This document shows positions 12,325 to 24,531 of a DNA stretch of 64,000 bases, piece after piece. How positions within the stretch are numbered: position 1 is the first letter of the stretch; each line of letters begins with the position of its first letter. The position numbers and the translations under genes were made by a program. A model generated the notes under the pieces. The model saw only the letters and a list, made by a program, of their open reading frames with translations, had not been told where the DNA came from and made no database searches. Source of the stretch: Candidatus Methylomirabilota bacterium (GTDB taxonomy: Bacteria > Methylomirabilota > Methylomirabilia > Rokubacteriales > DASRDR01); NCBI GenBank assembly GCA_035550795.1, contig DASZOL010000069.1, positions 3,942 through 67,941 of the forward strand. The letters are read 5' to 3'.

Positions 12325-14106
12325 CTAGAGGAGCAGCTCTTCGGGCGTTGAGGGCAGGTCGCCCAGAGTCTTCGACTCGACCGCGTAGAGGGCCGGCTGG
12401 CCGGGAATCCGCACGTACGTCAGGCCGGCCTCCTGCTTCCCCACGGCCAGCGCGCCGATCGTCCGACCATCCTTGCCGGACAGGGTGACCGTCGTGGCGC
12501 CCGCGTCGAGACCGTATCGGGCCGCGTCCCACCCCTGCTCCGCCACGAGATCCTTCCACTTGAGGTTGCGGAGCGTCCACACGAGCTCGCTCACGCGGCC
12601 GCCCCGGGCCTTCCCCGTCCTCGGCGCCGCGAGCCGCCAGTCCTCTTCACCCGCGCCCGACCGGTCGAGCGTGAGCGTCACGCTCGGATGCTGAATCGTG
12701 ATCCGGGCGACGTCCTTCGTATCGAAGGCCTCCGCCAGAGACCGGTCGCGCAGCTCCATGACGCCGCGCGCCAGCTCCTCCAGCGCCGTCGGGTCGACCG
12801 CCGCCACCCTGGCGGGACCCTGGCCGACGACGCTCGCGTACGCGCGGTCCTTCTCGCGGGCCGCAGCCAGCAGCAGGGTCTTGGGCTCCTTGGCCTCCTT
12901 CTCCCAGACGGTGATGCGGACCCGGGGCTTGTCGAGGCCGTAGGTGGCGAGCCGCTTGGCGTCCTCGGACACGAAGTCACGGGCGCGGAGGTCGCGCGCC
13001 TTGAAGAGCACCTGGCTCATCGCGCCCTCGTCGGCAGGGAGCGTCACGGGCGCCGTGATCCGCCACTTGCCGTCCTGGAGCGCGAGCGCCACCTTGCCCT
13101 TGGGGCTCTCGATCTCGACGCGCTCGAGCTTTCCCCGGTCGTAGGCGAAGACCGTCTTGTCCCGGAAGGCCATCGCCGAGTCGGGGATGGACTTCCACAG
13201 CTCCTCCTCCACCAGGAACACCGCACCGTCACCTTCACGCTGGGCATACACGGCCTTCTTGCCCGGCACCGCCTTGCCGAAGCGCAGCGTTCGCACGGTC
13301 CGCGAGGCCTCCTCGCCCACCCCGAGCGTGAGTCGGGCCGGCCGGTCGAGCCCGTACTCCGCCAGGCTCTTGGGCGCGTCGGTCACGAACTCCTTGATTT
13401 TCGCGGCGTGGAGCTTCTCGAGGAGCCCGCTGATCGCCTCCCGGTCCGCCGGAGCCGCGAGGGGAGCCGTGAGCTGCCACTCGTCGGCGCCCTTGACCCC
13501 CGCCGCCGCGACCACCTGGCCCGCCGGTCCCCGCACCTCGACGGCCTTGACGTCCTTGCGTTCGAACGCGACCAGCGTGCGGTCGCGGAACTCGCCGGCC
13601 GGCTTCTGAACGTCTCGGAGAAGACCCTCGGGCACCAGGAGGACGGCAGGCTTGCCCGTCTCCTGGGCGTAGGCCCAGATGCCGGACGGGCTCTTCGCGC
13701 CAAGCTTGACGCCGCGCTCCTGTCCCTTGGCCTTGAAGGTCACCTCGGCGGCGGGAGGCGCGAGCCCGAAGTCCGCCGGCTGCGCGGGGTGGGCCTCGAT
13801 CTCGCGCTCGACCCGGAGGGTCGCCAGCGACGTCGCGAGGTCGTCCGCCGCCCGCCGGTCGGCCAGGGCCGCCACCGGCGCCACCAGGCTCCAGGTCTCA
13901 CCGGCCTTCCTGAGGTGTAGCGCGTCGGCGCCGCCCTTCCGGACGACGATCTCCTCGACGTCCTTCCCCTCCAGGCCCTTCCAGAGATGGTCCTTGATCG
14001 CGGCGGCCTTCTCGCGCTCGGGCCCCTGGCGGATGTCGTAGACGTAGTAGAAGGTGCCGAGCCCGAGCAGGAGAACGGCCAGTACCGTCGTCGTCAGCCA
14101 GCGCAT
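12325..14106 (-). CDS. DUF4340 domain protein, four tandem repeats, N-terminal TM anchor
   Basis: Four copies of W.L.AP....AD ... [YF]GL ... RD[RK] units. Confidence 0.85.
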   Translation of the reverse strand: MRWLTTTVLAVLLLGLGTFYYVYDIRQGPEREKAAAIKDHLWKGLEGKDVEEIVVRKGGADALHLRKAGETWSLVAPVAALADRRAADDLATSLATLRVEREIEAHPAQPADFGLAPPAAEVTFKAKGQERGVKLGAKSPSGIWAYAQETGKPAVLLVPEGLLRDVQKPAGEFRDRTLVAFERKDVKAVEVRGPAGQVVAAAGVKGADEWQLTAPLAAPADREAISGLLEKLHAAKIKEFVTDAPKSLAEYGLDRPARLTLGVGEEASRTVRTLRFGKAVPGKKAVYAQREGDGAVFLVEEELWKSIPDSAMAFRDKTVFAYDRGKLERVEIESPKGKVALALQDGKWRITAPVTLPADEGAMSQVLFKARDLRARDFVSEDAKRLATYGLDKPRVRITVWEKEAKEPKTLLLAAAREKDRAYASVVGQGPARVAAVDPTALEELARGVMELRDRSLAEAFDTKDVARITIQHPSVTLTLDRSGAGEEDWRLAAPRTGKARGGRVSELVWTLRNLKWKDLVAEQGWDAARYGLDAGATTVTLSGKDGRTIGALAVGKQEAGLTYVRIPGQPALYAVESKTLGDLPSTPEELLL

Positions 14107-14120
14107 CCGTCGACTCCGCG

Positions 14121-15686
14121 CTACCGCCCGCGCCGCCGGGCCACGGCCACCCCGCCCGCCGCGATCACTGCCAGCGGGATGAGCACCACCGGCACGAGAA
14201 ACACGACCTGGCCCTGGGCGGCGGTCAGGAAGACCGGAGCGCTCCGGGCCTCCCGCGGCCGCACCGCGATCAGATTCTCCTCCTCGGCGAGCCACGACAG
14301 CGTGTTGAGGAAGAAGTCGCGGTTGCCGGAGAGGTTGACGAACTCGTTCCCCGCGAAGTCGGAGTCGCCGATCAGCACGATCCGCGCCTTCGCTCCCTTC
14401 CGCTCGGCGGGCGCGTCCTTGGCGTCGAGCGTCGCGACCGCGGCGACGGTGAGGGGCCCCCGCGTCTCGCCGGGATCGGGCTTGACCTGGCCGGTGCGAA
14501 TCTGGTCCTGGCTGGTCTCGGCCCAGCTCTCGCCGGACGTCCGCGCGAGCCCCTGCGCGGTCACGCCCTCGGGCGCCTTCTCCTTCACGGAGACGGTGCG
14601 CGCGACCGGGAAGAAGGTCGCAAACCGGAAGTCGCGGGTGATCGGGTGCGAGAGGTAGTCCCCGACAACCGGGATCTCCGGCCCCGCGCCGGCCTGGCGG
14701 CCCTGGGGGTTGATGTCGATGATCACGTCGTTCCCGAGGCCGAGCCCCCAGCGCTCGAGGCTCGGTCCCAGCCCGGTGGTCTGGAACGGATCGATCATGA
14801 AGAGGATCTTGCCGGCCCGGGCCACGTATCCGGCCAGGGCGTCGATCTCGGTGGGCAGGAGCTCCTTCTGGGGGCCGGCAACGACCACGATGGTGGCGTC
14901 GTCCGGCACCTTGGGCTCGCGGGCGAGGAGGAGATCCTTGACGTCGTAGTTGAGCTTCTCGATGGCGGACTTCATCTGACCGTAGCCCGTCCGCTCGCTC
15001 GAGCCTGGGTCCTTCTCACCGTGCCCCTTGAGGAAGTAGATGACACGCTTGCCCGAGCGCGTGACTCGGACGATCCCGTTCGTCAGCTTCTCCTCGTCCA
15101 CGTCCTGGAGCTTCTCCTGCTTCTTCTGCCCGTCGGGCAGGACGGCTTCCAGGACAACCGTGCCGTAGGTCTCAAAGTTGTACTGCCGGGCCAGCAGCGG
15201 ATTCCGGTCCGCGTCGACGACTTCCCAGGTGAACTTCCCGTTCGAGCGCTGCGCGTACTGCTTGAGGAGATCCTCGGCCGCCCGCTTGTTCGGCTGATCC
15301 GGCCGGAAGAAGGCGACCGCCTTGACGGGCACGGCCAGCTCGCTGGCGATCTTCACGGTCTGGGGGGACAGGCTCCAGCGCTTGTTCTCGGTCAGGTCCA
15401 CCCGCCAGTTGTGCCGGTACGACACCGCCTCGACCAGCGCGATGACTCCCAGGATCAGGACGACCAGGATCGCCGCGTTGAGGCCGTACCGGGCCGCCCG
15501 CCCGGCCAGGGCCCGGCGCACGTTGCTCGCAAAGCTCGCGTACAGACCGAACAGCAGCACCAGTCCGCCGAGAATCAGCAGCGCCGGCCAGACCTTGGTC
15601 CACGACGGCCGGTAGGTCTGGAGGACGAAGCCCGCCACCAAGCCGGCGAGGCCGAAGAAGAGTGCCGGAGTCCCGAGTCGCTCCAT
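14121..15686 (-). CDS. GldG family ABC-associated protein
   Basis: DLTENKRWSLSPQT, YFLKGHGE, LIGDSDF, NRDFFLNTLSWL, C-terminal TM. Confidence 0.88.
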   Translation of the reverse strand: MERLGTPALFFGLAGLVAGFVLQTYRPSWTKVWPALLILGGLVLLFGLYASFASNVRRALAGRAARYGLNAAILVVLILGVIALVEAVSYRHNWRVDLTENKRWSLSPQTVKIASELAVPVKAVAFFRPDQPNKRAAEDLLKQYAQRSNGKFTWEVVDADRNPLLARQYNFETYGTVVLEAVLPDGQKKQEKLQDVDEEKLTNGIVRVTRSGKRVIYFLKGHGEKDPGSSERTGYGQMKSAIEKLNYDVKDLLLAREPKVPDDATIVVVAGPQKELLPTEIDALAGYVARAGKILFMIDPFQTTGLGPSLERWGLGLGNDVIIDINPQGRQAGAGPEIPVVGDYLSHPITRDFRFATFFPVARTVSVKEKAPEGVTAQGLARTSGESWAETSQDQIRTGQVKPDPGETRGPLTVAAVATLDAKDAPAERKGAKARIVLIGDSDFAGNEFVNLSGNRDFFLNTLSWLAEEENLIAVRPREARSAPVFLTAAQGQVVFLVPVVLIPLAVIAAGGVAVARRRGR

Positions 15687-15691
15687 GTCGG

Positions 15692-16459
15692 TCAGCCTCT
15701 CCAGCGCTTCGAATCGAGCGAACGCAAGGTGAGGAACAGGGCCAGGATCGTGAGGTTCAGGTAGTAGATCAGGTCCTTCGTGTCGATCACGCCCTTCGCG
15801 AACGACTCGAAGTGCTCGGTGAGGGACACGTGGGAGAGCACTCGCCCGAGGGCCCCCCCCGCGGAGTCGGAGGCCCAGGCGATCACCCAGAAGATCAGGA
15901 GCGTCCCGAAGGTCGCGACGGCCGCCACGATCTGATTCTCGGTCAGGGACGAGATGAGGATCCCGATCGCGATGAACGCCGCGCCCTGGAGCAGGAGCCC
16001 CAGATACCCGGTCGCCAGCGGCCCCCACTCCACCGGGGTGACCCAGGCCACGATCAGTGGATAGGCGGCGGTCAGGGCCAGCATGGCGGCGAAGACGGCG
16101 AGCGCGGCCAGGTACTTTCCGAGCAGGACCTCGCCGTCCCGGACCGGGTAGGTCAGGAGCAGCTCGATCGTCCCGCTCTTCTTCTCCTCGGCGAACAGAC
16201 GCATCGTGAGAATCGGCATCATCAGCAGCATGATGACGCTGATGTTCTGGAACAGGGGCCGCAGGACGCCCTCGGTGACCGAGAGGTCACGCGCCATCAT
16301 GGGATTCATCGCCGACTGCATGCTCATGATCGTGTAAAACGCGAACACGTTGTAGAAGAACCAGCCGCTGATCAGCGAGAAGATCGCCAGGACCGCATAG
16401 GCGATGGGCGAGCTGAAGTACACCCGGAGCTCCTTCTTGAAGACGGCCCAGGTCCTCAT
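15692..16459 (-). CDS. ABC-2 type permease (GldF-like)
   Basis: KKELRVYFSSPIAY, TMRLFAEEKKSGTIELLLT, FAKGVID. Confidence 0.9.
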   Translation of the reverse strand: MRTWAVFKKELRVYFSSPIAYAVLAIFSLISGWFFYNVFAFYTIMSMQSAMNPMMARDLSVTEGVLRPLFQNISVIMLLMMPILTMRLFAEEKKSGTIELLLTYPVRDGEVLLGKYLAALAVFAAMLALTAAYPLIVAWVTPVEWGPLATGYLGLLLQGAAFIAIGILISSLTENQIVAAVATFGTLLIFWVIAWASDSAGGALGRVLSHVSLTEHFESFAKGVIDTKDLIYYLNLTILALFLTLRSLDSKRWRG

Positions 16460-17445
16460 GGCGCCACGTCCTCCGCCGCCGCGGCGCCGGCGTCGACCAT
16501 TGCCTCGTCGTGCTCCTCGCCCGCCACCACGCGGATAAACAGGTCCTCGAGCGACAGGCCGAGGGCGCGCAGCTCGAGAAGACCCCAGCGCTGCTGCGCG
16601 GCCAGCTGGGCCACGTCCCGCCTGACGTCCCGCGCCCGGTCCGCCTCCAGGACGAACGTGCCGACGCCGTCGCTGCCGCCCCGGCTCTCCACCCGTTGGA
16701 CGCCGGGCAGGGCCCGGAGCGACCGGGCGATCAGCTCGGGCGGGCCCTCGATCTGCGCTTGCACCCGCGCCACCGGGGAGAGCTCTTGCATCAGCCGATC
16801 GAGGGGGCCGGACGCGACGATCCGGCCGCGGTTGATGATGACCACCCCCTCGCAGACCATCGACACCTCGGGCAGGATGTGCGTCGAGAGGATGACCGTG
16901 TGGGCGCCGGCCAGCGACTTGATGAGCTGGCGGATCCCGACAATCTGCTTGGGATCGAGTCCGATCGTCGGCTCGTCAAGGATGAGGACCTCCGGATCGG
17001 CGATGAGCGCCTGGGCCAGGCCAACTCGCTGGCGGTACCCCTTCGAGAGTCGCCCGATCAGCCGCTCACGTACGTCGGGGATCTGGCATTGTTCGAGAAC
17101 CTCCCCGACCCGGCGCAGCCGCTCGCTCCGGCCCAGCCCCTTGATGTGGGCGACGAAATCGAGGTACGCGGCCACCGTCATGTCCCCGTAGAGCGGGACG
17201 TTCTCAGGGAGGTAGCCGATGCGGCGCCGCACCTCCAGGGACTGCTCGAACACGTCGTAGCCGGCCACCCGAGCGGTCCCGCTGGACGCGGGCATGAAGC
17301 AGGAGAGGATCCGCATGGTCGTCGTCTTGCCCGCCCCGTTCGGGCCCAGGAAGCCGACGACCTGGCCCTTCTCGACGGCGAAGGAGACGTCCTGGATGGC
17401 CGGCACCGGCCCGTAACGCTTGGTGAGGCGATCGACCTCGATCAT
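16456..17445 (-). CDS. ABC transporter ATP-binding protein (GldA-like)
   Basis: GPNGAGKTT, LSKGYRQR, ILDEP, STH. Confidence 0.93.
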   Translation of the reverse strand: MIEVDRLTKRYGPVPAIQDVSFAVEKGQVVGFLGPNGAGKTTTMRILSCFMPASSGTARVAGYDVFEQSLEVRRRIGYLPENVPLYGDMTVAAYLDFVAHIKGLGRSERLRRVGEVLEQCQIPDVRERLIGRLSKGYRQRVGLAQALIADPEVLILDEPTIGLDPKQIVGIRQLIKSLAGAHTVILSTHILPEVSMVCEGVVIINRGRIVASGPLDRLMQELSPVARVQAQIEGPPELIARSLRALPGVQRVESRGGSDGVGTFVLEADRARDVRRDVAQLAAQQRWGLLELRALGLSLEDLFIRVVAGEEHDEAMVDAGAAAAEDVAP

Positions 17446-17626: not shown

Positions 17627-17828
17627 GATGAGCCCCGCGAGCCGCCCGCCGGCGGTGACGTCGGTGCGCCCGACGCTCGTGCCGGGGGGGAACCCCGCCA
17701 TTGTCAGGATGTCCCCCGTGATGGGCACCGGGAAGCCCGCGCCGCCCCGAGATCCGCACGTCGTTCGGGGTGACCGTGAAGTCCGAAGGCCCGCCGGATC
17801 ACCCCCCGCCGGCCGGCGCGGGCGGCGG

Positions 17829-18239
17829 TCACGCAGAGGCGGTCTCCGGGGCCAGAAGTGGCTCGAGCCAGTCGGGGATGGCGATCATGCGCTGGGTTTC
17901 CGGATTCCAGCAGGCATGCCGCGTCTCCCCCGTGGCGACGGGCTCCCCCGTCTCCACCTGCCGGATGTCGTACCGGAAGACGAACGACGCCCGCTTCCGC
18001 TCGCTGATCCAGCATCGCACGCGCAGCAGGTCGTCCAGCCGCGCGGGCTTGATGTACCGCACCGACGCCTCGACGACAGGCATGTGGACCTTCCGGTCCA
18101 CCGTCGACATCGGAAGGCCGTGCTGGCGGAGGAACTCCACGCGGCCGACCTCGAAGTATGTGAGGTAGTTCCCGTAGTAGACGACGCCCATGGTGTCGGT
18201 CTCGGCGTACCGCACCCGGATCGTCGTCTCGCACACCAC
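17829..18239 (-). CDS. Acyl-CoA thioesterase (YbgC/FadM hotdog family); start uncertain
   Basis: RVRYAETDTMGVVYYGNYLTYFEVGRVE, YIKPARLDD. Confidence 0.9.
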   Translation of the reverse strand: MVCETTIRVRYAETDTMGVVYYGNYLTYFEVGRVEFLRQHGLPMSTVDRKVHMPVVEASVRYIKPARLDDLLRVRCWISERKRASFVFRYDIRQVETGEPVATGETRHACWNPETQRMIAIPDWLEPLLAPETASA

Positions 18240-18392
18240 CGCGTCGTGCGGCCTCTCAGCAACGCGGCGGGACGATGGAACGTCGCTGTCCCCCGGCGGG
18301 CGCCGCCCGCGTCTCCGGCCCCGGGCCCGGCGGCGGCGACGCCGCACCACGCCACCCGCGGCACCGGCGCCTCCGGAAGGGACGCGGCGGCA

Positions 18393-19349
18393 TCAGAGGT
18401 ACTGACCGTAGCGGATCTTGACGACCACGTCCCGGACGCGGCGCGACTCGTCCACCGCGGTCATGAGGTCCGCCGTCCGGACGAGGCCCGGGTCCTGCCC
18501 GCCTCCCGCCTGGTGGACCTTCTCCTCGAGCGCACGGTGTATCACCTCGGCGACCTCGCCGCCGCTCATCCCGGCCAGCCGGGACACGAGCAGGTCAGGG
18601 TCGATGGGCTCGAAGAGCGTCCGCTCGGCCATCGCCTCCGCGCGCTTGCGCTGGATCTCGAGGATCTCCCGCAGCGCCGGGCCGTCGGGCAGCGGCACCT
18701 CGATGAGGTGGTCCAGGCGCCCGGGAGCGATGAGGAACGATCCGATTCCGTCCGGGCGGCTCGTCGAGGCGAGGACCAGGAGCGAGGGGAAGGCCCGCAG
18801 CCCGTCGAGCAGCTCACAGATCCCGATCAGGAGCGGCGCCGCCGCCTCCCGGGCGCGCTCGGGAGGAAGCATGTGCTCGAACGAGAGGGCCTCCGCGTCC
18901 TCGAAGTAGAGGACGCCCTTCCCCTCCGAGCCGGCGAGCTGGAACACCTCCTTGATCACCTCGGCCGCCAGCGGGCCGACCTTGGAGGTGAGGGTCGCCA
19001 GCCGGAAGTGATAGAAGAGCGCTTCCGACAACGTCGCCAGGGCCTTCGCGAGCAGCGTCTTCCCGTTGCCGGGCGGTCCGTAGAGGAGTCCGCCGCGCGG
19101 CGGGGCGATGCCCCAGCGCCGGTAGAGCTCGGGCGTCCGGAGCGCGTGGGACAGCCCGCTGATCGCGGCCTTCGCGCTCTCGGCGCCCCCGATCATCCCG
19201 AAGGTCACCTCCGGCCGCGGGATGACCTCGACCCGCCCCCGGAGGTCCCCGAACTTCGGCTCGAGCTTGCCGACCAGATCGTCCAGACGGCGCTGGACGG
19301 CCCACTCCACCGCGGGCAGGGCGCGGCTCGATCCCGCTGCGTCGCGCAC
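18393..19349 (-). CDS. Single-domain AAA+ ATPase-like protein with C-terminal GQYL (proteasome-docking) motif
   Basis: PPRGGLLYGPPGNGKT Walker A, LYFEDAE altered Walker B, PGRLD, ends KIRYGQYL*. Confidence 0.85.
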   Translation of the reverse strand: MRDAAGSSRALPAVEWAVQRRLDDLVGKLEPKFGDLRGRVEVIPRPEVTFGMIGGAESAKAAISGLSHALRTPELYRRWGIAPPRGGLLYGPPGNGKTLLAKALATLSEALFYHFRLATLTSKVGPLAAEVIKEVFQLAGSEGKGVLYFEDAEALSFEHMLPPERAREAAAPLLIGICELLDGLRAFPSLLVLASTSRPDGIGSFLIAPGRLDHLIEVPLPDGPALREILEIQRKRAEAMAERTLFEPIDPDLLVSRLAGMSGGEVAEVIHRALEEKVHQAGGGQDPGLVRTADLMTAVDESRRVRDVVVKIRYGQYL

Positions 19350-19355
19350 GCGCGG

Positions 19356-19883
19356 TCAGAACGTCGGGGGGGACCCGGCCTTGGGCAGGGCCCGCTCCGC
19401 CTTCTCGAAGACCTGGTCCTCCACGAGGATGGGCACCCGAGCCCGGAGCGCCAGTGCGATGGCATCCGAGGGTCGGGAGTCGATGGTGAGCTGGGTCCCT
19501 GCGGCTTCGAGGTGGAGCTGAGCGTAGTACACGTCGTCCCGCAGATCCGTCACGACGATGCGCTTGAGGGAGGCACGGAGATCGCCGAGAACGTTGAGGA
19601 ACAGGTCGTGCGTCAGCGGGCGCGGGGGGGTGAGCCCCTGGAGCGCGATGGCGATCCCGTTGGCCTCGAACGGACCGATGCTCATCGCGAGCGGCCGTCG
19701 GTCTCGCTTGCCCTGGAGAAGCACGACCGGCTGGCGCGTGCTCGGGTCCAGGACGACGCCCGTGACCTCCGCCTCCTGCGGGCTCGGTGGCGGCCCGCCC
19801 GCCTTCGGCGGCGCGGTCGCGCCCAGGCCCATGAGTCCCACCAGCGCCGCCATGGCCAGTGTCCGCGATCGCGCTCCCCGCAT
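19356..19883 (-). CDS. Bifunctional nuclease family protein (DUF151) with signal-like N-terminus
   Basis: IGPFEANGIA, PRPLTHDL, IDSRPSDAIALALR; SD GGAGG 7 nt before ATG. Confidence 0.9.
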   Translation of the reverse strand: MRGARSRTLAMAALVGLMGLGATAPPKAGGPPPSPQEAEVTGVVLDPSTRQPVVLLQGKRDRRPLAMSIGPFEANGIAIALQGLTPPRPLTHDLFLNVLGDLRASLKRIVVTDLRDDVYYAQLHLEAAGTQLTIDSRPSDAIALALRARVPILVEDQVFEKAERALPKAGSPPTF

Positions 19884-19920
19884 GGCGCATCCTCCCCCAG
19901 CGCCCCCGCGCCGTGCGCGC

Positions 19921-19926
19921 AGTATA
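19921..19926 (-). promoter_or_regulatory. -10 box TATACT for the DUF151-AAA operon
   Basis: TATACT ~37 nt before ATG 19883. Confidence 0.5.
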
Positions 19927-19973
19927 CCCCATCTCGCGCGCGCGGCCTCCGGGCCGGACCCAGGACCTGGCGG

Positions 19974-21140
19974 TCAGCGCTCCAGCCGGAACGCAAGGAC
20001 GCACGCGCCGGCGAGCAGGACGCTCAGGATGGCGAACATCGGCCCGTAGCCGACCGCGTGCGCCAGGTGACCGAAGCCGGCGGCGCCCGCGGCCTGGCCC
20101 ACCAGGATGAAGGCCATGAACACGCCCATGACGCGGCCGCGCCGCTCCGGCGGCGTCAGGTCCACGACCAGCGCCGTCAAGGCCGGATAGAGGAACCCGT
20201 GCGCGGCCCCGGCGAGGACGCCCGCCAGGGCCAGGAAGGGACCGGCCGCCAGCCCGACGCCCCGCAGCAGGCCGAGACCGGCCAGCAGCACGGTGCCGGC
20301 GGCCTGGAGCACCATCGCCGGGATGATCACGGCCCGCCGGCCCGCGGTGTCCGCAAGGCCGCTGCTCGTCGCTCGCAGGACGAGGGCCGCGCTCGAGTAG
20401 GCCACCGCGAAAACGCCCACCCATCGGACCCCGAGGTCGAGCGCATAGGTCGGAAAGAACGTGAACATCACGCCTTGGCCGAGACCGAAGGCCGCCCCGA
20501 GCGCCAGCGGGAGCCGCGGCGCCCCCGCGATGCCGCGCAGGAGGCCGGGCAGGCCCTCGCCGGCCGCCGGGCGGGGGGCGGGCGGCAGCGCGAGCCGCGC
20601 GGACATCCCGGCGGCCAGGAACGAGAGGGTGGCCGAGGCCAGGAAGAGGCCGCGGAAGCCGGCCGCCTGAACCACCAGCTCCCCGAGGGCCGGACCCACG
20701 GCGCCGGAGATGAGCCCGGAGATCCCGAAGATCCCGAGGGCCTGGCCCCGCCGGTCCGGCGGGGCCAGGTCCACGACCACCGTGAAGTTGGCGATGAAGA
20801 AGATGGAGAAGGCTGCGCCCTGCAAGGCGCGGAGCAATGGAAACCACCCGAGGGCCTCCGGGACGGCCGCGAAGGCCAGCGCCACCGCGCCGGTCAGGAC
20901 GGCCCCGCTCACGAGGAACGCCCGGCGCCCCCCGCGGTCGACCCACGCGCCGACCAGCGGCTGGACGACGATCGCCGACGCGTTGTAGCACGCCATCGTC
21001 AGTCCGAGCTGTCCGTCCGTCGCGCCGAGCTGCCGGAGGTGGAGCGGCAGCAGGACGAAACCCCCGAGCCCGGTGAAGAAGAGGAAGTTCATGGCCGCCG
21101 CGGTCAGGAACGCGGCGGTGAGGATCGTGGAGGAGGGCAT
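19974..21140 (-). CDS. MFS transporter
   Basis: GAWVDRGGRR, DLAPPDRRGQALG, ~12 TM segments. Confidence 0.9.
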   Translation of the reverse strand: MPSSTILTAAFLTAAAMNFLFFTGLGGFVLLPLHLRQLGATDGQLGLTMACYNASAIVVQPLVGAWVDRGGRRAFLVSGAVLTGAVALAFAAVPEALGWFPLLRALQGAAFSIFFIANFTVVVDLAPPDRRGQALGIFGISGLISGAVGPALGELVVQAAGFRGLFLASATLSFLAAGMSARLALPPAPRPAAGEGLPGLLRGIAGAPRLPLALGAAFGLGQGVMFTFFPTYALDLGVRWVGVFAVAYSSAALVLRATSSGLADTAGRRAVIIPAMVLQAAGTVLLAGLGLLRGVGLAAGPFLALAGVLAGAAHGFLYPALTALVVDLTPPERRGRVMGVFMAFILVGQAAGAAGFGHLAHAVGYGPMFAILSVLLAGACVLAFRLER

Positions 21141-21165
21141 CGACGGGCGGCGGGATGCCCGCCCG

Positions 21166-22917
21166 TCAGAGGAGGGTCGGCACGAGCTGGCGGGGCTTGA
21201 CGGCCAGGAGACCGCGCGTCGTCAAGCGCAGCGCGGGGATGGCCGAGAACGTGAGGGTCTGCAGCGTGAGCAGCGGGCGGCCGAGTCCGCAGCCCAGCGC
21301 GCGCAACGCCGCGGTCAGCGCGTCGAGCCCGCCGGCCAGCTCGGGAACGGACGCGGCGGCGGCGACGCCCCCGAGCGGGAGCGGCAGCTCCGCCAGAACG
21401 GCGCCACGGCCATCCACGACGACGAAGCCGCCGCCGAGCTCCACGACCCGCTGCCCGGCGGCCGCGAGCGCCTCGCGCGCCGCGCCGACGATGACCAGGT
21501 CGGCGGTGTCGAACGACAGCGTCGAGGCGACGGCCCCCGCGCGAAGACCGAACCCCTGGACCACCCCCAAGCCGCGGCGCAGCCCCGTCCGCCGGTCGCA
21601 GGCCGCCGCGAGCAGGAGGTCCGACGCCGGATTCGCCAGCACGGCCCCCCCGTGGACGGGGAGCGTGGCCTCCTCCTCGGCCGTCACGATGTCCCCGGCG
21701 ACCCGGATCACGCGCACCCGGGCCCGATCGCCCGCGGCGCGGAGACGGAACGACCCCGGGTCGAGCGGGCCCGGCCGGGGACGGTCGTAGAGTCCCGCGG
21801 GCAGGGGGACCAGGGGACACGGAACCAGGCAGCGGCCGTCGCGGGCGACCAGCCGGCCGCGCGCCACGACCACTTCGGGCCGCACCGTGCGGAGGTCGGG
21901 GAGCACGAGAAAGTCCGCCCAGCGGCCCGGGGCGATGCCCCCGAGCTCGCCATCGAGACCGAAGTGCTCTGCCGCGTTGAGGCTCGCCATCTGGTAGGCC
22001 GTCACCGGCGGGAGGCCGCGGTCGATCGCTCGCTGGACGATGCCGTCCATGTAGCCGCGCTGCAGGAGGTCATTCGGCCAGATTCCGTCGGAGGCCAGGG
22101 CTGCGCGGCGAAGCGACACGTCCGCCTGACGGACGTCGAGGACCGCGTCCAGGTCGCGCCGCACCGAGCCCTCCCGAATCAGGACCCGCATGCCGAGCCG
22201 GAGCCGATCGAGCGCCTCGGCGGCGGTGATCGGCTCGTGGCAGGAATCGATTCCGGCCGCGGCGCACGCCACGAGCCGAGGCCCCCGCGCTCCGGCCGTG
22301 TGGCCATCCACCGTCTTGCCGAGCGCCCGTGCCCGGTCGATCAGCCCGAGCAACCGCTCGGGCTCCGGGAGCAGGCGGTGCCAGTAGACCTCGCCGAGAC
22401 CAAGCACCCGCGGGTCGGCGAGGAGGGCCGCGACCGCGTCCGCGTCCAGGAGCGGCTCATCCGGCCTCGCCTCCGCCGACAGGTAGGAGATCACCGGCGC
22501 AGTGGCGTACGCATGGATCGGCTGGGCGGCGAGCGTGTCGAGGAACCACCGGGCGCCCGGCACGCCGAGCGCGGAGGTCACCTGGACCATCTCCGTGACA
22601 AGCGCGGTGAGACCCCGCGGGATGGCCTCCCGGAGCAGCTCCGGCAGCGCGGTGATGACGTCGAGGTGCGTGTGGCCGTCGAGGAAGCCCGGCACGAGGA
22701 CCCTGCCCCGGACGTCGAGCCGCCGGGTCTCCGGCCCGGCCAGGGCGGAGAGGTCCGGGCCGACCGCCGCGACCCGTCCGTCGAGGACCGCCACGTCCCA
22801 GCGGACGACCTCGCCCGTGTAGACGTTAACCACGTCACCGCCGAAGGCGACCAGGTCCGCCGAGGCCGCGCCCAGCGCCACCCCGAGGAGACGGCGGCGG
22901 TCCACGGCACCCGTCAT
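21166..22917 (-). CDS. ade: Adenine deaminase
   Basis: PGFLDGHTH, LGLGEV, DGH, SCHE, REGS, ASD, GGIAPGRWAD, C-terminal ade domain. Confidence 0.85.
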   Translation of the reverse strand: MTGAVDRRRLLGVALGAASADLVAFGGDVVNVYTGEVVRWDVAVLDGRVAAVGPDLSALAGPETRRLDVRGRVLVPGFLDGHTHLDVITALPELLREAIPRGLTALVTEMVQVTSALGVPGARWFLDTLAAQPIHAYATAPVISYLSAEARPDEPLLDADAVAALLADPRVLGLGEVYWHRLLPEPERLLGLIDRARALGKTVDGHTAGARGPRLVACAAAGIDSCHEPITAAEALDRLRLGMRVLIREGSVRRDLDAVLDVRQADVSLRRAALASDGIWPNDLLQRGYMDGIVQRAIDRGLPPVTAYQMASLNAAEHFGLDGELGGIAPGRWADFLVLPDLRTVRPEVVVARGRLVARDGRCLVPCPLVPLPAGLYDRPRPGPLDPGSFRLRAAGDRARVRVIRVAGDIVTAEEEATLPVHGGAVLANPASDLLLAAACDRRTGLRRGLGVVQGFGLRAGAVASTLSFDTADLVIVGAAREALAAAGQRVVELGGGFVVVDGRGAVLAELPLPLGGVAAAASVPELAGGLDALTAALRALGCGLGRPLLTLQTLTFSAIPALRLTTRGLLAVKPRQLVPTLL

Positions 22918-23501
22918 GCAGCCTCGCCAGGCGGCGTGATCAGGAGCGACCAGCCGCGCCGGGTCGCCCAGGTCCGGAGGAACTCGGCGTAGGAGAGGAT
23001 GCGATACGCCGTCGTCCCGGAGTGGAGGACCACGACCTCGCTCCGGTCGTCATAGCCCAGGAGCACCGCGAAGTGCGGCACCGACACCGGGCCCCGGCCC
23101 AGGTCCTGGAACACGATGAGCGGCCGGCCTCGGCGTAGCTCGGTCTTGGCGCGATCGAGGGTGCCCTCGAATGCCTGGGTCCGGAATCCGCGGCGGCGCG
23201 CCTCGAACTCGAGCTCGAGGTTGAGGACACCGCGGGCCGAGGGCAGGTAGAGGGCGCGCCCGATCTCCTCCGGGTCGGCGGCGGCCCCCCAGAAACGGAG
23301 AACCATGGCGAGCGCCGCCGGACCGCACTGGTAGGCGGCCTGGGGGATGAAGGGGACCGTCGCGATGAGGTGGCCGTGACCTGCGGCGACGTCGGCACGC
23401 ACGGCGTCCAGCGTGGTCTGAGCACATCCGCTTCCGAGGAGACCAGCCAGAAGGAGCGCGAGCCGCGCGCGCCCTCTGAAAGGTTGAAGCGGGCGCCACA
23501 T
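22914..23501 (-). CDS. C39-like (PA2778-type) cysteine peptidase, predicted lipoprotein
   Basis: Lipobox LGSGC; VPFIPQAAYQCGPAAL (Cys); HFAVLLGYD (His); stop overlaps ade start. Confidence 0.85.
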   Translation of the reverse strand: MWRPLQPFRGRARLALLLAGLLGSGCAQTTLDAVRADVAAGHGHLIATVPFIPQAAYQCGPAALAMVLRFWGAAADPEEIGRALYLPSARGVLNLELEFEARRRGFRTQAFEGTLDRAKTELRRGRPLIVFQDLGRGPVSVPHFAVLLGYDDRSEVVVLHSGTTAYRILSYAEFLRTWATRRGWSLLITPPGEAA

Positions 23502-23517
23502 CGCGTTTACTATACCA
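23484..23517. promoter_or_regulatory. Overlapping bidirectional promoter
   Basis: + strand TTGAAG-18-TACTAT; - strand TG-G-TATAGT ending 7 nt before ATG 23501. Confidence 0.55.
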
Positions 23518-23528
23518 TTCAACGCGAC

Positions 23529-23645
23529 ATGGCCCAGGACGCGCCGGTGCACCGCTGCTGGGTCTGCGGGGCGATCATGCGCGAGATCAAGTGCAAGATC
23601 GTCTGCCCGCATTGCGGGTATACGCGCGACTGCTCGGATCCCTGA
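23529..23645 (+). CDS. 38-aa Cys-rich zinc-ribbon microprotein
   Basis: MAQDAPVHRCWVCGAIMREIKCKIVCPHCGYTRDCSDP; CxxC...CxxC. Confidence 0.75.
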   Translation: MAQDAPVHRCWVCGAIMREIKCKIVCPHCGYTRDCSDP

Positions 23646-23661
23646 GCGCCGCGCGCCGGTC

Positions 23662-24531
23662 GTGACGATCGACGAGGCACTTCGCCAGGCGTCCGCCGAC
23701 GCCGCGCGCGGCGTCGTGACCGTACCCGCGAACCTCCACGGCTTCCCCGGCACTGCGCACGGCGGCGCGGTGGCCGCGGTGTTTCACCGCCTCACGCTGC
23801 CGCGCCCGCCGGTGGAGCTGCACGTCGAGCTGCTTCGCGGCGTGCCCACCGCCACGCCCCTCGGACTCCGCACGGGTAGCACCGGGGCGACTGCGCGACT
23901 GGCGCTGACCCAGCGCGAGCGCCCGCTGGCGGAGGCGACGCTCCGTCGCGAGGGGCTGGCCCAGCCGGATGTCTCCGGGCTGCGGGCCGGGTGGGCGGCG
24001 GACCACGACGCCCGGGCCGAGGTGCCCGGGACCGAGACCTGTCTCGCGTGCGGCTCCGCAAACCCGCTCGGCCTCGGCGTCCGCTTCCTGGTGAACGATG
24101 GGTTCCTCTGGCGCGAGTGTCTCCCGCCCCCGGCCTACCGGACGCGGGGAGGCACGCATCCAGCCCTCGCGCTCGTCCTCCTGGACGAGCTCGGCTGGTG
24201 GCTCGGCGCGCTCACGCAGAAGGAGTGCGGCGTGACCACCGACCTTCGCGTCACGCTCTTCGACTCGCTGCCCCTCGCGCCCCTCCTTGTCGTCGGTGAC
24301 CGCACGGCGGTCGGGCGCGACGACGACCCCCGGGGCCGGTACAGCCGGACCGCCGGGGCGCTTCTCGGTCCGGACGGCACACTCCTCGCGAGTGCGGAGA
24401 TCCGCTTCGCGGGGAGCCGCGCGTACACCCGGCGGCTCGTGGAGCCCTTTCTCACCAGGACGCCCCTCGACGAGCTGGCCCGCTGGTTCCCCAGTGCCCG
24501 GGATCTCGCCGCCCCGGAGTCCGGCGGCTGA
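23662..24531 (+). CDS. Tandem hotdog-fold (PaaI-like) thioesterase
   Basis: GTAHGG motif in domain 1; CLACGSANPLGL and LDE in domain 2. Confidence 0.7.
   Translation: MTIDEALRQASADAARGVVTVPANLHGFPGTAHGGAVAAVFHRLTLPRPPVELHVELLRGVPTATPLGLRTGSTGATARLALTQRERPLAEATLRREGLAQPDVSGLRAGWAADHDARAEVPGTETCLACGSANPLGLGVRFLVNDGFLWRECLPPPAYRTRGGTHPALALVLLDELGWWLGALTQKECGVTTDLRVTLFDSLPLAPLLVVGDRTAVGRDDDPRGRYSRTAGALLGPDGTLLASAEIRFAGSRAYTRRLVEPFLTRTPLDELARWFPSARDLAAPESGG

Follow-up and report, generated by a model that had tools for sequence, protein, structure and literature searches.

Mpa/ARC and Bpa/PafE are the only GQYL-bearing activators of bacterial proteasomes described so far, and they are known from Actinobacteria (PMC6017811, PMC12288473). 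Both depend on a C-terminal GQYL for opening of the mycobacterial 20S, which takes place via a conserved lysine of the alpha subunit (PMC12288473, PMC6017811). In proteasomal ATPases, ATP binding drives tails with a penultimate tyrosine (HbYX) into the pockets between alpha subunits (PMC5476697). Cpa, an actinobacterial Cdc48-like protein of the classical AAA type that has also been proposed as a 20S interactor, carries two AAA domains and an N-domain, and has no HbYX/GQYL tail (PMC6017811). Here, we analyzed the gene for P0002, a minimal AAA protein ending in GQYL, which lies in a 64,000-nt stretch of contig DASZOL010000069.1 (the window) from a Rokubacteria/Methylomirabilota metagenome-assembled genome (MAG) of 4.85 Mb, assembled in 119 contigs and 83% complete.

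The P0002 family probably represents a previously undescribed accessory partner of the 20S. For P0002 itself, our analysis leans towards a ring that works without Pup, docks on the 20S and would now serve as an ATP-binding gate-opener or cap, or as a competitor of Mpa. The docking is supported by the tail, which is a known docking motif, by the presence of a cognate 20S and of Mpa in the same genome, and by the proteasomal ATPases that are the closest relatives of P0002 in sequence and structure. The literature searched on GQYL, on Rokubacteria proteasomes and on HbYX motifs in bacterial proteasomes yielded no description of this family, and database annotation of its members is confined to "AAA family ATPase" or generic COG names.

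A minimal AAA protein with a GQYL tail

The gene and the sequence elements of its product are located in the window as follows.

18393..19349, minus strand: gene for the minimal AAA protein P0002, with a GTG start at 19349 and a TGA stop at 18393-18395, 318 amino acids
19242..19307, minus strand: N-terminal amphipathic helix EWAVQRRLDDLVGKLEPKFGDL, residues 15-36, family-specific and conserved (alignment columns and AlphaFold2 (AF2) model)
19056..19079, minus strand: Walker A GPPGNGKT, residues 91-98, intact (sequence)
18963..18989, minus strand: pore-loop-1 region TSKVGPLAA, residues 121-129 (alignment to p97)
18891..18914, minus strand: Walker B VLYFEDAE, residues 146-153 (alignment to p97 D2 "VLFFDELD")
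18711..18770, minus strand: sensor-1 ASTSRPD and second region of homology (SRH) FLIAPGRLD (alignment to p97)
18396..18419, minus strand: C-terminal tail KIRYGQYL, residues 311-318, the last four residues being the 20S-docking motif of Mpa and Bpa

The initial annotation, made from the letters of the window, had read this gene as coding for a 318-residue protein ending in KIRYGQYL, with an intact Walker A, altered Walker B, pore loop, sensor-1 and SRH, and only about 45 residues, hence no coiled-coil or oligonucleotide-binding (OB) domain, ahead of the AAA core. The open reading frame (ORF) at 18393-19349 on the minus strand bears out the length and the ending, its translation closing with VVVKIRYGQYL directly before the TGA, and the sequence together with the p97 alignment agrees with the description of every motif. 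Long overlapping ORFs also occur on the plus strand (e.g. 17628-21200), as is typical of DNA with 71–72% G+C.

Columns G91, P92, G94, G96 and K97 of the Walker A were invariant in the family alignment. The other motor elements of P0002 were altered. In Walker B, E-D stands in place of the canonical D-E, which puts an aspartate at the position of the catalytic glutamate. The pore loop contains no aromatic residue and is one residue short of the canonical K-[YFW]-[VI]-G, the sensor-1 asparagine is replaced by serine, and the first SRH arginine is replaced by alanine with the second arginine retained. P0002 departs in this way from the set of features that marks a catalytically competent motor (hhhhDE, sensor-1 Asn/Thr, two SRH arginines and an aromatic pore loop 1). 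The loss of the catalytic glutamate, the sensor-1 asparagine, one arginine finger and the pore aromatic, with the P-loop left intact, leads us to predict that ATP is bound but that hydrolysis and grip are inefficient, and P0002 most likely binds ATP and hydrolyzes it poorly or not at all, as judged from these motifs.

Pfam matched the AAA domain (PF00004) to residues 88-220 with 58.4 bits against a gathering cut-off of 21.2 (1.3e-15), and similarity to PAN and Cdc48 began at about residue 28-40, so that about 45 residues containing one helix precede the AAA core. This helix, in whose region the family alignment has conserved columns at R20, R21, L22, D24, L29, K32, G34, L36 and G38, occupies the place of the coiled-coil and OB domains of PAN and Mpa. 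The presence of one short helix alone before the core indicates that P0002 has no coiled-coil or OB domain, and the starts of the Pfam and NCBIfam matches and the helix at residues 13-33 of the AF2 model all agree with the short N-terminus described in the initial annotation.

Relation to known AAA families and fold

P0002 is a single-domain AAA module of the classical clade and is PAN-like. The best NCBIfam models were those of PAN (NF003069 with 130.7 bits and TIGR01242 with 123.7 bits, cut-off 500), matched over model positions 108-351, which comprise the AAA module only. Lower scores were obtained with the models of CDC48 (116.6 bits), FtsH (86 bits) and Mpa (67.1 bits), all far under their own cut-offs. 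Sequence matches in the PDB were to the D1 and D2 domains of p97/Cdc48 and to PAN. The AF2 models were monomers; that of P0002, built on a 34-sequence family alignment, reached a pLDDT of 91.3 and a pTM of 0.88, and showed the N-terminal helix, an alpha/beta large domain and a four-helix lid, whose last helix (292-313) leads directly into YGQYL, the least confident part of the chain. Foldseek retrieved the PAN ATPase domain as the best match of this model (3whk and 3h4m, TM-score normalized by target of ~0.9), then FtsH and p97.

By sequence, the P0002 family falls outside each of the named families with which we compared it: Mpa, PAN, Bpa and Cpa. PAN shares with P0002 the classical AAA large domain, the four-helix lid and the C-terminal docking tail with its penultimate tyrosine. 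However, PAN carries an N-terminal coiled coil and an OB ring where P0002 has one short helix, and its tail is an archaeal HbYX, whereas P0002 has the bacterial GQYL and resides in a bacterial host with an actinobacterial-type PrcAB. Degeneration of Walker B, the pore loop, sensor-1 and the arginine finger distinguishes the clade of P0002 from PAN.

Mpa/ARC (TIGR03689) belongs to the same AAA clade, has an identical C-terminal GQYL and is encoded in the same genome. Nevertheless, it is only 28% identical to P0002 over the AAA core, and P0002 scored 67.1 bits against the TIGR03689 cut-off of 504.75. The Pup-capturing coiled coil, the double OB and the beta-grasp that precede the Mpa tail are all missing from P0002, and its gene lies outside the pup-proteasome cluster that contains the Mpa gene. 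Bpa/PafE (PF10759) also bears the GQYL tail, acts independently of Pup and opens the gate for unfolded substrates, which is the role proposed here for P0002. In contrast to the AAA fold of P0002, Bpa is an unrelated four-helix bundle that forms a dodecamer and has no nucleotide site, and the BPA domain PF10759 was absent among the Pfam matches of P0002. The earlier assertion that the protein is neither Mpa nor Bpa was upheld by the TIGR03689 score, the missing PF10759 match and the absence of coiled-coil and OB domains. From Cpa, P0002 differs by its single AAA domain and by its tail.

Degenerate AAA rings of the NSF D2 and p97 D1 type bind ATP and hardly hydrolyze it; they keep the P-loop intact while their catalytic or pore parts are weakened, and their nucleotide binding serves assembly rather than work. 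These rings are domains within two-ring motors, whereas the P0002 family would form single rings that stand alone and carry a tail for docking on a protease.

A recent truncation of Mpa as the origin of P0002 was ruled out by the 28% identity and by the PAN, Cdc48 and FtsH models, which outscored that of Mpa. Membership in a defence system (IteA/IetA, TRIP13-like) was likewise rejected: the IteA model NF042959 gave 34.7 bits against 510, PADLOC matches were partial at 20–39 bits, and the neighbouring genes had no PADLOC match.

Extent of the family and invariance of the tail

All genomes in this analysis were MAGs. The close homologues of P0002 comprised 120 proteins of 301–327 amino acids with 66–92% identity, labelled Candidatus Rokuibacteriota or Methylomirabilota; GQYL closed all of them, 121 of 121 in the tally of close homologues, and 117 ended in KIRYGQYL. 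An exhaustive profile search of 1.84 billion cluster representatives recovered only five full-length family clusters at 50% identity (P0124, P0125, P0128, P0141 and P0148), 41–52% identical to P0002 and all ending in [YT]GQYL, and the next-best matches were generic Cdc48-like and other AAA proteins. From a second profile search came over 115 proteins of the P0125 clade, with KIRYGQYL in 115/117, GQYL in 116/117 and a single GHYL. The tail was thus essentially invariant in over 240 homologues with identities as low as 41%.

At the DNA level, 200 of the 251 genomes of the phylum contained a pattern for KIRYGQYL followed by a stop, in nearly all cases as one copy, and none contained the reversed control pattern, which sets the tail apart from a chance ending. 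Some of the pattern-negative genomes had the variants KTRYGQYL or KIRRYGQYL, or a copy truncated at a contig end. The family members, of about 310 amino acids, are usually encoded in single copy. The invariance of the tail is strong, though not conclusive, evidence for docking on the 20S.

On present evidence, the family seems confined to Methylomirabilota. A MAG with a member that NCBI labels "Acidobacteriota bacterium" (L109; GCA_029580855.1, JAKPQH010000245.1; G251) had coordinates identical to those of G009 and belonged to the same GTDB phylum, and a "Deltaproteobacteria bacterium" contig with a member had the adenine-deaminase neighbour that also occurs in the window. Because of this identity and this shared neighbour, the two labels are poor evidence for a wider range. 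Scanning contigs with the family alignment for taxonomic range was discarded as an approach, the back-translated Walker A pattern having drawn generic archaeal and bacterial AAA genes with only one true member (L015).

Stepwise loss of motor motifs

Motif states were mapped onto a maximum-likelihood tree of 68 representatives (quick search, SH-aLRT support), which resolved the following groups.

Clade I (families f7 and f10, a few f13 members, P0128 and P0148): Walker B mostly LFLDE[IL]D, pore loop mostly K-W-Y-[GA]-[DE]-S, sensor-1 mostly STNRPD, SRH mostly I/V-R-P-G-R
Clade IIa (P0124, L015, L117 and L118): Walker B DE, shortened aromatic pore loop SKFG, sensor-1 N or S, first arginine lost (A/E-P-G-R)
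Clade IIb (P0120 and P0122): Walker B DE, pore aromatic lost (SKIGP), sensor-1 N, SRH APGR
Crown clade (48 rows, including P0002 of the window; 100% support): Walker B DD or ED, pore loop SK[VI]GP, sensor-1 Ser/Gly with one Asn, SRH mostly APGR

Clade II as a whole had 99% support and a branch length of 0.71. The initial annotation had asked whether GQYL and the altered Walker B and pore loop are conserved among homologues; GQYL is, and the degenerate motifs, as read from the alignment and the tree, are a property of one crown clade (Rokubacteriales) and not of the family. The deeper clades are canonical in Walker B (DE), the KWY pore loop, the sensor-1 asparagine and RPGR, indicating that the family began as an ordinary motor. 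The retention of all motor motifs in the deep clades makes a true minimal unfoldase probable there. The top NCBIfam hit of the clade-I member P0286 was also PAN, with a score of 185–186 bits, higher than that of P0002, and a match that extended as far as the C-terminus of the model.

Across the clades, Walker B changed from DE to DD and then to ED, and KIRYGQYL, Walker A and the second SRH arginine stayed constant over the whole tree. The order of loss would be the arginine finger together with shortening of the pore loop, then the aromatic residue, and last the Walker B glutamate and the sensor-1 asparagine, with the tail frozen throughout. In the AF2 models, the pore-loop region of P0002 formed one continuous helix (117-141), whereas that of a clade-I member was broken at the WY tip (114-120 and 125-138). 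The models agree in this respect with a changed pore in P0002, which is weak evidence; the tail was a low-confidence free end in both. Between the window and its closest relatives, dN/dS was 0.12–0.17 at a dS of 0.3–0.5, indicating that P0002 is kept by purifying selection and is not decaying.

This selection would also suit a P0002 that is still a working Pup-independent unfoldase, in which the ED/DD Walker B, the sensor-1 serine and the one SRH arginine left would sustain a slow, productive hydrolysis that threads substrates into the 20S through a smooth aliphatic pore. Such a motor would be in keeping with the invariant Walker A and second SRH arginine, with the acidic pair that is always found at Walker B (DE in a few crown members, P0097 and P0106), and with the derived crown states SKVGP, STSRPD and IAPGR, which are themselves conserved and point to a tuned rather than a dead state. 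However, the crown clade differs in four independent motor elements that changed at once, no aromatic or bulky residue is left in the pore, and AF2 no longer predicts a protruding pore loop, which renders a working unfoldase unlikely for P0002.

Pup-proteasome genes of the genome

A search for prcA/prcB, pup, pafA/dop and a full-length mpa, which the initial annotation had named as a check, found all of them in the genome, and Mpa also ended in GQYL. Contig C17 carries mpa/arc, dop, prcB, prcA and pafA, which with pup on contig C118 make up a full actinobacterial-type Pup-proteasome set. The Mpa orthologue (C17:67925-69838) scored 747 bits with TIGR03689 and ended in TTTGQYL. The gap of ~650 nt between dop and prcB on C17 contained no recognizable pup, which was located elsewhere:

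C118:8242-8442, plus strand, outside the window: pup, 66 amino acids, a canonical Pup ending in EEFVKSYVQRGGE (YVQRGGE)

PrcA matched the Rhodococcus and M. tuberculosis PrcA proteins at 1e-72 to 1e-75, and the pocket lysine Lys52, on which GQYL-dependent activation relies (PMC12288473), is retained in it within ENPSTLLHKISEIYDR. When ORFs of at least 60 amino acids were read in all six frames across the 4.85 Mb of the genome, just two of them ended in GQYL, those of Mpa and P0002. Docking had been said to fall if the lineage lacked 20S genes or if GQYL varied among homologues; since 20S genes are present and GQYL is invariant among homologues, neither computational objection was found to hold. 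The genome also has a separate, intact hslVU pair. HslV was ruled out as the docking partner of P0002, as hslV adjoins an intact HslU ending in SRYIL.

A putative ring on the 20S gate

In the mode of action that we favour, P0002 would assemble into a nucleotide-bound ring, the GQYL tails of which would enter the pockets between PrcA subunits (PrcA7), like those of Mpa and Bpa. The ring would thereby be a Pup-independent accessory regulator of the 20S gate. Clade-I members would work as a minimal Pup-independent unfoldase, whereas P0002 of the crown clade would open or cap the gate in an ATP-dependent manner and admit peptides and unfolded proteins, or would compete with Mpa, rather than translocate and unfold substrates. 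A more tentative suggestion is that the family may be a third class of GQYL-bearing 20S partner, unlike Mpa and Bpa in architecture, a "PAN without its N-domain", and may record a passage from an unfoldase to a nucleotide-gated pseudo-ATPase cap.

On that suggestion, P0002 would represent the last stage: it would sense ATP, open the gate or compete for it, and tie access to the 20S to cellular nucleotide status without mechanical work. Consisting of little more than an AAA module and a tail, it would be the smallest AAA ring in nature for which docking on a 20S is predicted. A third family, spread over a whole phylum in an uncultured soil lineage, would also carry the regulation of bacterial proteasomes beyond Actinobacteria. 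What is unusual in the family is the minimal architecture combined with a natural series from an intact motor to a pseudo-ATPase, and sister clades with intact and decayed motors could separate the contributions of ATP binding, hydrolysis and pore-loop grip to gate opening and substrate entry.

Several observations weigh against a docked ring. The isolated AAA domain of PAN is not known to form stable hexamers, P0002 has no obvious hexamerization domain, and only ~5 residues follow its last helix. None of the family members examined adjoined Pup-proteasome genes, their neighbours being MFS, secreted-looking BFN_dom, thioesterase or unrelated genes. PrcA (TIGR03691) was found in 194 of the 251 genomes of the phylum, and the tail pattern and PrcA occurred together in 155 genomes, the AAA protein only in 45, the 20S only in 39 and neither in 12, an odds ratio of ~1.06 within the phylum that gives no co-occurrence signal. 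Moreover, eight f13 genomes of 99–100% completeness, one of them closed, had the 20S and no family member, and about half of f8 lacked a member though 20S-bearing. The presence of the 20S without the family in f13 and in part of f8 indicates that the mini-AAA protein is accessory and not obligate.

Co-occurrence proved uninformative, because both genes are near-universal in the phylum and their absences are mostly gaps in MAGs. At least part of the "AAA only" class reflects an assembly artefact: in G024 (end of C16), G041 (C543) and G043 (end of C4), whose loci are L111-L113, a fragment of a Pup ligase gene or of prcB lay exactly at a contig end. Such fragments in all three of the "AAA only" genomes inspected point to a break in the assembly and not to a loss, and the paralogy of dop and pafA may be the cause of the breaks. 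With these three inspected, no verified genome among the 251 retained the mini-AAA protein without the proteasome system, and in f6 (two genomes, 100% complete) the AAA protein, the 20S and the Pup ligase were all absent. As a separate observation, f13 (G049-G068, e.g. L122-L128) encodes a ~760-residue two-domain Cdc48-like AAA protein instead of the mini-AAA protein, reminiscent of the actinobacterial Cpa.

Bpa homologues in the phylum

In 52 of the 251 genomes, proteins homologous to Bpa/PafE exceeded the Pfam cut-off for PF10759, with none in the genus of the window itself. They comprise ~155–165 amino acids and end in GQYL or GHYL, which indicates that the tail code is in use in this phylum. 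Examples from other genomes of the phylum, matched by PF10759 and with the endings PGHYL or GPGQYL, are:

L133, 1462-1926, plus strand: Bpa homologue
L134, 1474-1971, minus strand: Bpa homologue

A general replacement of a missing Bpa by the mini-AAA protein was ruled out, as the two coexist in several genera.

The mini-AAA protein is found alongside Mpa in all cases and alongside Bpa in part of the genera. This would also be compatible with a protein that docks on PrcA via GQYL either to chaperone assembly of the 20S or to act as a cap that only inhibits, keeping Mpa or Bpa away. Assembly chaperones that bear HbYX motifs exist in archaea and eukaryotes (Pba1/2 and PbaA/B), and this precedent, together with the loss of motor motifs and the retention of the tail, speaks for such a role. 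Nothing specific in our data supports it, however, and clade-I members look like active motors, for which substrate delivery is the better fit; we therefore hold a chaperone or inhibitory cap to be quite improbable.

Gene neighbourhood

Around the P0002 gene, the window contains the following genes, upstream and downstream being given relative to P0002.

19356..19883, minus strand: BFN_dom (DUF151) gene, 175 amino acids, with the signal-peptide-like N-terminus MRGARSRTLAMAALVGLMGLGATA; PF02577 at 2.8e-36; upstream, ending 6 nt before the AAA start
19974..21140, minus strand: major facilitator superfamily (MFS) transporter gene, upstream in the MFS-BFN-AAA-4HBT block (Pfam and synteny)
21166-22917, minus strand: adenine deaminase gene, upstream of the MFS gene
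22914-23753, minus strand: gene for a Peptidase_C39-like protein, upstream of the MFS gene
17829..18350, minus strand: 4HBT-type thioesterase gene, the downstream syntenic neighbour (Pfam and synteny)
12325-17445, minus strand: ABC-2 exporter set (ABC_tran, ABC2_membrane, ABC_transp_aux/DUF7088 and DUF4340), downstream of the thioesterase gene

The order (adenine deaminase)-MFS-BFN_dom-AAA-4HBT thioesterase forms a conserved block in Rokubacteriales, with 4–45 nt between the BFN_dom and AAA genes. This arrangement raises the alternative that P0002 is a proteasome-independent AAA remodeller or chaperone, perhaps acting with BFN_dom, the MFS transporter and the thioesterase, and that its tail serves self-assembly or another partner. 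The lack of linkage to proteasome genes, the absence of the family from 20S-bearing f13 and the co-occurrence odds ratio of about 1 would all be accommodated by such a protein. In opposition to it, the synteny is confined to one order and clade-I members keep the tail in other contexts. The tail is exactly the Mpa/Bpa motif and in this genome is common to Mpa only, HslV already has HslU, and the PADLOC matches are weak and of the generic AAA kind. The signal-peptide-like N-terminus of the BFN_dom protein, which is probably not cytosolic, further argues against a cytosolic partnership, and BFN_dom as a cytosolic partner was considered unlikely on this ground and because the synteny is limited to one order. 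We accordingly see a proteasome-independent function as having rather little probability, and retain docking on the 20S as the preferred reading.

Beside clade-I members the BFN gene is absent; their contexts include DctPQM or an acetyltransferase gene upstream and a GntR gene downstream, in proximity to rpoD, dnaG and mutS2. A lipoprotein gene lies upstream of f10 members, and the mini-AAA gene of the P0148 clade (L136) has adenine deaminase immediately upstream.

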